Shown: positions 1-4,331, counted from the stretch's first letter. The stretch: 4,331 nucleotides of DNA from a virus (IMGVR_UViG_2706794682_000011), one strand, 5' to 3'. Notes: a model not told the origin generated them from the sequence alone. Program-made: numbers and translations.

Positions 1-114
1 TGGGTGAGCAATAATGTATACAAGATTAAGTAGTATATAAATTGCTACCGGAATGAAAATCATGCTCCAGTGTGTATCTTTTTTGGGAGGGATTGGCTGC
101 AAATAATCAGACAC
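1..114 (-). CDS. 5' part of a hypothetical protein with a hydrophobic, transmembrane-like N-terminus; gene continues beyond the left window edge
   Basis: Minus-strand frame has no stop from coordinate 180 down to 1 (60 codons) in about 30% GC DNA where stops are frequent. In-frame starts are GTG 114..112, TTG 102..100 and ATG 63..61. From the ATG the translation is MIFIPVAIYILLNLVYIIAHP, a hydrophobic helix-like stretch. It lies directly downstream of, and on the same strand as, the 125-aa gene. The start codon is uncertain: GGAG sits only 1 nt before the ATG, and GGAAAAA sits 6 nt before the GTG. Not in the ORF track because no stop is in the window. Confidence 0.35.
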   Translation of the reverse strand, partial: MSDYLQPIPPKKDTHWSMIFIPVAIYILLNLVYIIAHP

Positions 115-196
115 CGTTTTTCCATCAGTTTCAAGAAGAATTACTAGATCTCTTACTTCACCACTGACTTGAGTGCATCCTTAGTAGTAATGTTAA

Positions 197-574
197 TCAT
201 TTTTTCCCTCCAAATACGATGCCCTCTACGTCTTTGGAAGCTTTTTGTGATGACCACTCCTCTGAATCAGGTGATTTAATTAAAAATATTGTATCTCCAT
301 CAAAAATCGTATTTGTTCCGTAAAAATTCACATTTGATAGATCACCACCAAAAACCCTCTGCCCACTCGAGGTAATTGCCTCACCTAATTTAGTAAAATT
401 ACCAGCAATAGATGATTTTCTTTTTCCACTTCTATTCAAAGTGGCTTTAATTACACCACCACCATCCTTAGAGTTAAATAATTGAATGTCCACTCCAGCA
501 GTTGGTTGTATATATTTTGAAAGCTCTTTCTTGAACTTGTTAATATATTTATCTTTGTTTTCTTTGTTGGTCAT
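197..574 (-). CDS. hypothetical protein, 125 aa, no family recognised
   Basis: Complete ORF from ATG (574..572) to TGA (199..197). Sampled 60-nt stretches are about 30-33% GC, unlike the neighbouring prophage genes. The translation has no Cys or His, a Lys-rich N-terminus (MTNKENKDKYINKFKK) and a Gly/Ser/Asn/Thr-rich body. No signal peptide or recognisable catalytic motif. Divergent from the ybcN operon. Confidence 0.7.
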   Translation of the reverse strand: MTNKENKDKYINKFKKELSKYIQPTAGVDIQLFNSKDGGGVIKATLNRSGKRKSSIAGNFTKLGEAITSSGQRVFGGDLSNVNFYGTNTIFDGDTIFLIKSPDSEEWSSQKASKDVEGIVFGGKK

Positions 575-661
575 TGGTTAGATCCATAGTTCTGGCTGTG
601 ATTAGGTGAAAGTATACAAGGTTTTTAAAGCGAAGATCACTGTTTTGGCTTCAAGATAGTT

Positions 662-690
662 TTGATTTATCGTAATCAATCCGCCATAAT
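662..690 (+). promoter_or_regulatory. candidate sigma70 promoter (TTGATT, 17-nt spacer, CATAAT) directed towards the ylcH-like/ybcN operon
   Basis: -35-like TTGATT at 662-667 and -10-like CATAAT at 685-690 with a 17-nt spacer, about 55 nt upstream of the small ORF start at 747. Motif match by eye only. Confidence 0.3.
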
Positions 691-746
691 CCTCTCATCG
701 GAGCCTGAACAACTCCGGTGACTTCTGCGCATTTAAGGGGACTTAA

Positions 747-842
747 ATGCGACCACAATCTGAACTCATCACCTTGTCACAGATGCAGAAATGCACCTGC
801 GATTTTCTGCATTCTGCGGTTTCCGTTAGGGAGGCCGTATGA
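747..842 (+). CDS. ylcH: small protein (31 aa), YlcH-like position immediately upstream of ybcN
   Basis: ATG at 747 preceded by AAGGGG at a typical SD distance. Translation is MRPQSELITLSQMQKCTCDFLHSAVSVREAV. Its TGA stop (840-842) overlaps the ybcN ATG (839-841) as ATGA. K-12 has a small ylcH gene in this position; the sequence identity is not verified from memory. Below the ORF-track length cutoff. Confidence 0.45.
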   Translation: MRPQSELITLSQMQKCTCDFLHSAVSVREAV

Positions 843-2900: not shown

Positions 2901-3947
2901 TTAGAACTGGTAAACCATACCTACAGCAACGATATCATCGGTAGCAACGCCAGATGCTTTCGTGAAATCGCTCTTATCAATCAGGTTGATTTTGTAATCA
3001 ACAAAAGTGGACATATTTTTGTTGAAGTAATAGGTTGCACCTACATCAATATATTCAACCAGGTCCTGATCACCCCACGCACCCAAGTCTTTTCCTTTAG
3101 ATTGCAGGTAAGCAACGGACGGACGCAGACCGAAGTCGAACTGATATTGTGCAACTACTTCGAAGTTTTGTGCTTTGTTGGCAATATGGTTATTACCAAA
3201 AACAGTCATGTTCTGGGTTTCAGAATAGGTGGTAGCCAGATAGATGTTGTTCGCATCATATTTCAGACCAGCTGCCCATACTTCAGCATTTTGACCAGAT
3301 GCATTCAGGCTGTTGTTACCGTAGATAACCTGATTATTAGTGCGGTCAGATTTAGCATAGGTTGCACCTACACCGAATCCTTCATACTCATAAGTAGTGG
3401 AGAAACCGAAACCATCACCATTAGCTTCAGTTACGTCAGTGCGGTCATTTTTACCCTGATACTGAGCAGCAAAGTTCAGACCATCAACCAGACCAAAGAA
3501 GTCGTTGTTACGATAAGTTGCAACACCAGTGGTGCGACCAGTCATGAACACATCTGTTTGAGTCCAAGTGTCACCACCGAATTCTGGCAGGACGTCAGTC
3601 CACGCACCGATGTCGTATGCTACACCGTAGTTACGGCCGTAATCGATGGAGCCGTAGTCACCGAATTTCAGGCCAGCGAAGGCAAGACGGGTTTTATCTT
3701 TGGAGGAACCTTGAGATTCAGCGCGGTTGCCTTTGAATTCATATTCCCACTGACCGAAACCAGTCAGTTGATCGTTGATTTGGGTTTCACCTTTGAAGCC
3801 AAGACGGGCATAAGTAGTATCACCATCATCTGCATCATTAGAGGAGAAGTAGTGCTTAGCATTAACTTTCCCGTACAGATCCAGCTTGTTACTGTCTTTA
3901 TTATAAATTTCAGCTGCCTGAGCAGACATCGCCATCAGTACTGATGC
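2901..3947 (-). CDS. nmpC: outer-membrane general porin of the NmpC/Lc (OmpC/OmpF/PhoE) family; 5' end truncated by the N gap
   Basis: Translation has the mature N-terminus [17 protein letters not shown] and the canonical C-terminus ...VAVGMVYQF with a terminal Phe. The frame stays open above the ORF-track Met to the gap edge (..[11 protein letters not shown] is signal-peptide-like), so the true start lies in or beyond the Ns. Stop TAA at 2903..2901. The C-terminus is intact. Confidence 0.95.
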
Positions 3948-4043
3948 NNNNNNNNNNNNNNNNNNNNNNNNNNNNNNNNNNNNNNNNNNNNNNNNNNNNN
4001 NNNNNNNNNNNNNNNNNNNNNNNNNNNNNNNNNNNNNNNNNNN
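3948..4043. other. run of 96 N: assembly or scaffold gap of unknown true length
   Basis: Counted directly as 96 consecutive n characters. It removes the porin start codon, the first part of its signal peptide and the proximal promoter. Confidence 0.95.
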
Positions 4044-4228: not shown

Positions 4229-4331
4229 GGTAATGACTCCAACTTATTGATAGTGTTTTATGTTCAGATAATGCCCGATGACTTTGTCATGCAGCTCCAC
4301 CGATTTTGAGAACGACAGCGACTTCCGTCCC
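4229..4331 (-). mobile_element. IS1 insertion sequence, right-end terminal 103 bp including the terminal inverted repeat; element continues beyond the window
   Basis: The reverse complement of 4229-4331 is GGGACGGAAGTCGCTGTCGTTCTCAAAATCGGTGGAGCTGCATGACAAAGTCATCGGGCATTATCTGAACATAAAACACTATCAATAAGTTGGAGTCATTACC, which matches the IS1 right end as I recall it. The terminal inverted repeat GGTAATGACTCCAACTTATTGAT starts at 4229. Confidence 0.85.
4244..4331 (-). CDS. insB: IS1 transposase InsB, 3' end only (C-terminus ...GRKSLSFSKSVELHDKVIGHYLNIKHYQ)
   Basis: Minus-strand frame ends at TAA (4246..4244) and encodes the recalled InsB C-terminus. The 5' part is outside the window. Confidence 0.75.
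   Translation of the reverse strand, partial: GRKSLSFSKSVELHDKVIGHYLNIKHYQ

Follow-up and report, generated by a model that had tools for sequence, protein, structure and literature searches.

The window analysed here is a stretch of 4,331 nucleotides (nt) from the viral sequence IMGVR_UViG_2706794682_000011, and its source element is a DLP12-type lambdoid prophage. Its left end carries a short minus-strand cassette of two overlapping genes, referred to here as gene A and gene B. Judged by sequence comparison, A/B is a conserved, widely distributed and uncharacterised two-gene family. With somewhat less than even confidence, the pair is read as a prophage-expressed phage-exclusion or abortive-infection module in which a sensor would work together with a membrane effector.

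Gene A and gene B as an overlapping pair

Gene A (197-574, minus strand) is an intact open reading frame (ORF) of 125 amino acids (aa) that is annotated as a coding sequence (CDS) in Escherichia coli A7 and 536. Its protein (WP_000182282.1) contains neither Cys nor His, as an initial annotation of this DNA had read. The protein has no signal peptide and no hydrophobic segment, and it is predicted to be a cytoplasmic alpha/beta protein. The AlphaFold2 (AF2) model, predicted as alpha-beta-beta-alpha-beta-beta-alpha, is of low confidence (predicted local distance difference test, pLDDT, 58.5; predicted template modelling score, pTM, 0.61). A full-length profile match was obtained to phrog_18061 (E 9e-85), which is annotated as of "unknown function" and is also matched by all 78 wider A-family members. 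An exhaustive HMMER profile search returned 111 representatives of the A relatives, nearly all 120-135 aa long, and the conserved core of the family comprises Y10, G39, F84-G-T-N, K100, W107 and D115.

Intact gene B is a complete CDS of 142 aa in E. coli A7 and 536 (WP_000608370.1), with a full-length profile match to phrog_16940 (E 2e-96), which is likewise annotated as of "unknown function". Its start codon (ATG, 200-198) overlaps the TGA stop of gene A as ATGA, and the equivalent start is used in 24 of the 27 loci scored. A strong GGAGGG Shine-Dalgarno sequence for gene B (206-211, minus strand) lies 5 nt upstream of this ATG, inside the end of gene A, and translation of gene B is predicted to be coupled to that of gene A. 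The protein consists of a conserved soluble N-terminal domain of 36-40 residues, three hydrophobic helices and a polar tail. The AF2 model (pLDDT 74) shows three long helices, preceded at the N-terminus by a small beta-hairpin and helix of low confidence; hydropathy concurs. By the positive-inside rule the topology is probably N-in and C-out, which would place the N-terminal domain and an HKHK loop in the cytoplasm and the C-terminal tail in the periplasm.

The absence of the 125-aa protein from known families, claimed at the outset, has held up: it has no Pfam, NCBIfam or PADLOC match and falls only in PHROGs of unknown function, and sequence and fold searches gave no characterised family (generic fold matches only). 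No Pfam or NCBIfam match above cut-off was found for A, B, the 78 A-family members or 32 B-family members, and a lenient pass over the 78 A-family members (E<=5) gave no recurring weak match. A sequence search of the PDB with three profiles found no related solved structure. Literature searches by accession, UniProt and PHROG identifiers returned no match. The weak Pfam matches of B are spread over many unrelated membrane families, and the label given to B by JGI (Joint Genome Institute), "VIT1/CCC1 family predicted Fe2+/Mn2+ transporter", was not reproduced, since no Pfam cut-off was reached. A resemblance of the B N-terminal domain to a SAP/HeH-type helix-extended-helix was vague and without profile support, and was dropped. 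Homology to Ren was rejected, as no similarity to lambda Ren was found.

Co-inheritance of A and B

The pairing of A with a partner gene, which the initial annotation had proposed to survey, is conserved. In each of the 11 relatives looked up by contig, A is followed directly by a partner gene in the same orientation, and the 6 Klebsiella-type prophages have one as well. A partner is likewise found at each of 34 further metagenome and IMG/VR loci, and in 22 cases it overlaps A by the same 4 bp. Of these 34 partners, 31 are complete (125-143 aa), two are truncated where the contig ends and one is a short ORF of 101 aa; their first hydrophobic segment starts nearly always at residue 38-54. When a profile of the environmental partners was compared with enterobacterial gene B, hhalign gave a probability of 98% (E 2.7e-13), and the match covers the N-terminal domain and the membrane region.

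Close homologues of A/B (identity >=63%) are confined to Enterobacteriaceae. Among the Escherichia, Enterobacter and Klebsiella versions, the ratio of nonsynonymous to synonymous substitution rates (dN/dS) is 0.07-0.08 for A and 0.07-0.19 for B, values that show strong purifying selection on both genes. Pairwise distances of A and B are correlated across 32 pairs (Mantel r 0.86, p<=0.0002); the pair was therefore passed on together and diverged in step. This co-divergence extends from enterobacteria to marine, freshwater and sediment bacteria. A scan of species-representative genomes (one genome per species) returned one marginal Terriglobia match.

A self-contained cassette at the replication/nin junction

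Most of the cassette lies in the window (positions 1-659), inserted antisense at the replication/nin junction, before the ylcH/ybcN-nin block. Homology between the window and the DLP12 prophage of E. coli K-12 begins at position 660, 31 nt past the ybcM stop, and the cassette therefore occupies the ybcL-ybcM position. The initial annotation had recognised this replacement of ybcM. It was mistaken about the strand: ybcL and ybcM of K-12 run with ybcN, opposite to the cassette. The AT-rich left 700 bp that it described are borne out by a G+C content (GC) of 33-37% over 1-700 versus 50-59% over 801-2100 (200-nt windows). By segment, GC is 34.1% in gene A, 36.2% in the gene B part and 53.1% in ybcN-ylcG, and GC at third codon positions (GC3) is 0.25 for gene A and 0.28 for gene B versus 0.76 for ybcN and 0.58 for rusA.

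The same site is variable, with four arrangements among K-12 and the four other E. coli genomes sampled. It is occupied by emrE-ybcK-ybcL-ybcM in K-12 and STEC434, by emrE-ybcK in strain 122, by emrE-ybcK with a P22AR fragment and a hypothetical gene in EC93, and by ren with two hypothetical genes in 23CRST009; all these alternative occupants are co-directional with the nin genes. The cassette (>=99% identity) was found in 46 of 5,426 complete E. coli genomes, in each case as a single chromosomal copy that is annotated as two hypothetical proteins. Composition and distribution thus support the view that the left end is DNA of foreign composition, present in some strains only, which replaces other genes at a variable cargo site, as had been proposed from the sequence of the window.

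Upstream of gene A, a cassette-specific region (575-659, minus strand) represents a putative promoter and 5' untranslated region of gene A. It contains a -10-like hexamer, TATACT (611-616, minus strand), about 35 nt 5' of the start codon of gene A, and a hexamer is conserved at this position as TATGAT or TATAAT in Klebsiella-type cassettes and in that of locus L045. No convincing -35 element was found near it. Directly 3' of gene B lies a hairpin, GCCATGC(G)-loop-(C)GCATGGC, which is conserved between cassettes and has no clear U-tract. Between E. coli-type and Klebsiella-type cassettes, nucleotide homology begins only at the start codon of A and ends about 15 nt beyond the stop of B, and the hairpin and the -10-like element travel with the A/B genes between otherwise unrelated prophages. 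In architecture the cassette is a self-contained two-gene moron, with a putative promoter and terminator.

In this respect the cassette resembles the lambdoid morons HK97 gp15, bor and lom. It shares with them a foreign composition, a patchy presence between conserved flanks, a putative -10 element of its own, a hairpin after the last gene and transcription against the surrounding operon. The likeness has its limits, in that "moron" names an architecture and not a function, and in that the hairpin of the cassette lacks a clear U-tract.

The position between the replication and nin genes of lambdoid prophages could point to a function in the lytic cycle, with B as a lysis-timing or holin-like membrane protein accompanied by a regulator, or with the cassette as a replication accessory factor; the three helices of B are also those of class I holins. 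Such a function is highly improbable. In all lambdoid contexts the cassette runs against the early-right operon, and it accompanies the ybcN block in only 46 of the 2,776 E. coli genomes that have this block. A/B has also been found outside phages, in chromosomal islands and in a conjugative element. No holin match was found for B and its relatives in Pfam or PHROGs, and the lysis genes lie elsewhere in the prophages, where separate holins are annotated. Finally, A/B was not found among the isolated phage genomes searched.

Disruption of gene B and gene A

In the window, gene B is represented by its 5' two-fifths (1-200, minus strand) and is a frameshifted pseudogene. The initial annotation took this second gene as open and overlooked the frameshift. 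Alignment with A7 and 536 places a 1-bp deletion at 176-177 (minus strand), where one C of CC is missing on the plus strand, that is, one G of the Gly9 codon GGC on the coding strand. Gene B is frameshifted from codon 9, and its product is MINITTKDALKSVVK followed by a premature stop at 153-155 (minus strand). The remainder, out of frame with the start (1-114, minus strand), has two candidate restarts. A GTG at 114-112 would open a 113-codon ORF, annotated as the 112-aa partial protein P0153, and an ATG at 63-61 would give a 96-aa product. It had been noted earlier that a second frame on the same strand leaves the window, which is correct; the transmembrane-like N-terminus read as its start does not begin the gene, as the ATG at 63-61 is the internal Met47 of intact gene B. 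The frame exits the window at position 1 with 228 nt missing. Extension leftwards on the independent IMG/VR contig L023, which matches the whole window at 100% identity, closes it 228 nt beyond that position, as in intact relatives, and not within a few codons.

The same deletion is present in L023. Of the two restart remnants, the one from GTG is annotated on 11 Shigella sonnei contigs and the one from ATG in E. coli; the frameshift is therefore a real allele. Other S. sonnei contigs carry an intact gene B N-terminus, so the allele is polymorphic in that lineage. Cluster names and the IS1 load point to a Shigella sonnei-type genome as the probable source of the window. Because of the deletion in gene B and a prophage riddled with IS1, the cassette copy in the window is most likely non-functional. 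In the genome of the window, it would be a decaying remnant in an IS1-riddled cryptic prophage that probably does nothing.

Gene B has been broken independently in two lineages (that of the window and L023, and that of L031), and A is intact in all 27 loci scored. Gene A is disrupted in E. coli CV839-06 by an IS1 copy (L046 3440-4206) inserted at the position equivalent to window 429-438; this viable strain retains an intact gene B coding sequence. This IS1 probably also abolishes transcription of gene B by polarity. CV839-06 is a natural A-knockout strain that could be used for experiments.

These disruptions bear on the idea that A/B is a toxin-antitoxin or addiction module, with B as membrane toxin, A as antitoxin and stabilisation of the prophage or island as the main role, with or without a secondary anti-phage effect. 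Like type II toxin-antitoxin systems and membrane-acting toxins, A/B consists of short, overlapping, co-inherited and co-diverging genes with the putative antitoxin first; it is found on mobile elements and recurs beside bona fide toxin-antitoxin pairs. Breakage of B in two lineages and never of A in the 27 loci would be expected if loss of the toxin is harmless, although it is unremarkable that both of two disruptions fall in B (probability about 0.28 from length alone). The viability of CV839-06 with A disrupted and the B coding sequence intact departs from the toxin-antitoxin pattern and weakens a strict antitoxin role; it is not decisive, because the IS1 is probably polar on B. In addition, A has no helix-turn-helix, ribbon-helix-helix or other recognisable DNA-binding or antitoxin-type domain, B belongs to no known toxin family, and an antitoxin domain fused to an HNH nuclease, as described below for A, would be atypical. 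Taken together, a toxin-antitoxin module is considered unlikely.

Genomic contexts and a fusion to an HNH nuclease

Wherever it was located, A/B is accessory cargo. It occurs antisense at the replication/nin junction in diverse lambdoid prophages, in another prophage type (L012/L013), in a phage-like element (L053), in the cargo of a conjugative element (L055) and in chromosomal islands rich in toxin-antitoxin genes (L016, L040). In the L016 island, a strong homologue of PD-Lambda-3_B, a validated defence protein (Hypoth_Ymh domain; 5982-6557, E 6e-83), lies directly downstream of A/B, and the island also contains BrnA, a Gp49/HTH toxin-antitoxin pair, two GNAT acetyltransferases and an insertion sequence (IS). 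This adjacency was seen at one locus only. In the conjugative element, A/B lies beside a caspase-like Peptidase_C14 gene and near a DUF4238 gene. HigB/HigA and a gene for an Rce1-like CPBP protease are found near A/B in L040.

The A domain has also been found joined to a nuclease. In P0104 (447 aa; L051/L052 246-1589), a full-length A domain (residues 1-120) is fused to an HNH endonuclease domain (PF01844, E 1.3e-12, residues 191-231) that scores above the cut-off, and the C-terminal region of about 200 aa matches no family. The ORF was confirmed on two contigs. The occurrence of the A domain with either a membrane protein or a nuclease resembles, by analogy, the effector swapping of defence systems.

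Two loci contain an N-terminally extended A homologue with a further gene upstream. In L053, this gene (258-1895) encodes a 545-aa protein whose N-terminus reads like a GHKL/Bergerat ATPase motif (…EVIDNGCGMN…), with no Pfam match on record. In L055, it is the caspase-like Peptidase_C14 gene (3990-4760). These loci might represent larger three-gene variants of the A/B module.

BstA-type defence proteins (KilA-N and BstA_C) are encoded beside the repressor in L006 and L008 (13685-14446). In some Klebsiella-type prophages, the cassette thus co-resides with a known prophage defence system.

Other neighbours bear on the possibility that A/B is cargo for lysogenic conversion or host physiology. In such a case, A/B would serve an envelope or stress function, act as a small transporter or channel with its regulator, or confer bacteriocin immunity. 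The same site in relatives holds emrE, ybcL and ybcM. In L045 (5665-7348), a colicin-like gene (377 aa, weak PF01024) and a colicin-immunity-like gene (weak PF03857) adjoin A/B at the same replication/nin site, and the CPBP protease beside the L040 cassette is of a type linked to bacteriocin self-immunity. The VIT1/CCC1 label of B would also fit such a role. On the other side, Pfam did not reproduce that label, and a protein of 142 aa with three helices would be a small transporter; nucleic-acid or phage conflict is suggested instead by the HNH fusion and by the PD-Lambda-3_B neighbour. A role in host physiology is accordingly judged rather improbable. A DndB-domain gene was also noted among the replication-side genes of L045.

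A possible role in phage exclusion

The preferred reading remains that A/B is a phage-exclusion or abortive-infection module. The proteins would be expressed from the prophage in the lysogen. A would be a cytoplasmic sensor or regulator that acts on the cytoplasmic N-terminal domain of B, and B would be an inner-membrane effector that either perturbs the membrane or blocks entry of a superinfecting phage, from which an anti-phage phenotype would result. In at least one lineage, the A domain would instead be coupled to the fused HNH nuclease. The earlier suggestion that such a site carries defence, exclusion or toxin cargo is consistent with this fusion, with the PD-Lambda-3_B neighbour and with the toxin-antitoxin, conjugative-element and prophage contexts.

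A precedent for a soluble sensor and a membrane effector encoded by prophages is provided by the RexAB-type systems, which include Sbash gp30/31, CarolAnn gp44/43 and P. putida RexABpp (PMC12894663). With these systems and RexA/RexB of lambda, A/B shares the order of a soluble protein first and a multi-pass inner-membrane protein of about 140 aa second, as well as patchy presence as prophage cargo placed for expression apart from the lytic operons. The logic by which a cytoplasmic sensor activates a membrane effector (PMC12894663) may also be shared. RexB is a four-helix effector, whereas B has three predicted helices and an N-terminal soluble domain. A second precedent comes from functional selection for defence genes in E. 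coli prophages and other mobile genetic elements (MGEs), which recovered small unannotated gene sets at hotspots that defence-island enrichment could not detect (Vassallo et al., bioRxiv 10.1101/2022.05.12.491691). PD-Lambda-3-type systems resemble A/B as small unannotated cargo of prophages and MGEs, and a PD-Lambda-3_B homologue lies downstream of one A/B pair; neither A nor B matches the models of PD-Lambda-3 or other PADLOC models.

Several results weigh against a role in phage exclusion. Among the 5,027 defence models of PADLOC-DB v2.0.0, A and B gave 0 matches at E<=1, and the 78 A-family members gave only four isolated matches at chance level (E 0.002-0.009). A does not resemble lambda RexA (PDB 8TWQ) in sequence or fold, and the comparison of the B profile with lambda RexB by hhalign (probability 1.4%) revealed no similarity. 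Fold searches for A, which returned generic matches only, started from a poorly predicted fold (pLDDT 58.5). The accession numbers of A and B are absent from the text-form supplements of DefensePredictor. Megablast and tblastn searches of 50,697 isolated phage genomes (GenBank) and 72,556 PLSDB plasmids found no match to the module. The evidence from context is anecdotal, as about a dozen neighbourhoods were inspected without an enrichment statistic, and several of them (L009, L039) contain no recognisable defence genes. The HNH fusion is known from a single lineage, on 1.7-kb contigs too short to include neighbours. Expression in the lysogen would depend on a promoter inferred from the -10-like hexamer only, which a consensus promoter scan did not list.

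A wider view of the family is more doubtful. A/B may be an unrecognised, widespread anti-phage family, in which the A domain would be a new infection sensor or adaptor for alternative effectors, though this is put forward only tentatively. It is with similar reserve that these effectors are suggested to be usually a three-helix membrane protein with a docking domain and occasionally a fused HNH nuclease. Equally tentative is the proposal that the lambdoid prophages of Escherichia, Shigella, Enterobacter and Klebsiella may deploy the family from the replication/nin junction.

If the intact cassette is anti-phage, it would provide a new sensor domain and a small membrane effector, neither of them homologous to anything characterised. 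The replication/nin junction of lambdoid prophages would then be another cargo site worth mining. The conserved 36-40-residue cytoplasmic domain of B and the A-HNH fusion lead to a testable hypothesis on the way in which one soluble protein could be linked to different effectors. Comparable candidates that are still uncharacterised number in the thousands, and the cassette is a reasonable lead among them and not a surprise.

Other features of the window

To the right of the cassette, a ylcH-like small ORF of 31 aa (747-842, plus strand) lies directly 5' of ybcN and overlaps its start. The K-12 annotation names it ylcH and that of 536 lists a hypothetical protein; the ORF is part of the conserved flank and not of the cassette. 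It is followed on the plus strand by ybcN (839-1294), ninE (1294-1464), ybcO (1457-1747), rusA (1744-2106), ylcG (2103-2243) and quuD (about 2329-2712). No Rfam match was found in the window. The svsR small RNA of prophage NC-SV was considered for the intergenic region and rejected, because svsR is unrelated and maps to the 3' end of cI.

An ompC/nmpC-type porin gene runs on the minus strand from 2901 to beyond 3947, where a run of 96 N bases (3948-4043) begins. The window ends in an IS1 terminus (4230-4331) with 100% identity to IS1A positions 666-767. On L023, 241 bases (2387-2627) stand where the window has 96 N, so that the N mask is shorter than the sequence it replaces; these bases contain the start codon, signal peptide and 5' region of the porin gene. 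Where the window ends on the right, L023 has a full IS1 copy (1434-2200), which lies about 190 bp upstream of the masked stretch before the porin gene. Another IS1 copy, partial and oriented the same way (L023 6910-7140), begins 108 nt past the gene B stop. With direct IS1 copies on both sides, the 4.7-kb segment from the porin gene to gene B is bracketed by IS1. Further IS-like sequence lies beyond the partial copy, and since gene B is followed by this sequence and the partial IS1, the replication genes are gone in L023. The porin gene (2901-3947, minus strand) appears intact, with IS1 upstream, whereas nmpC of K-12 is interrupted near its 3' end by IS5, and the insertion history of this prophage is therefore unlike that of K-12.

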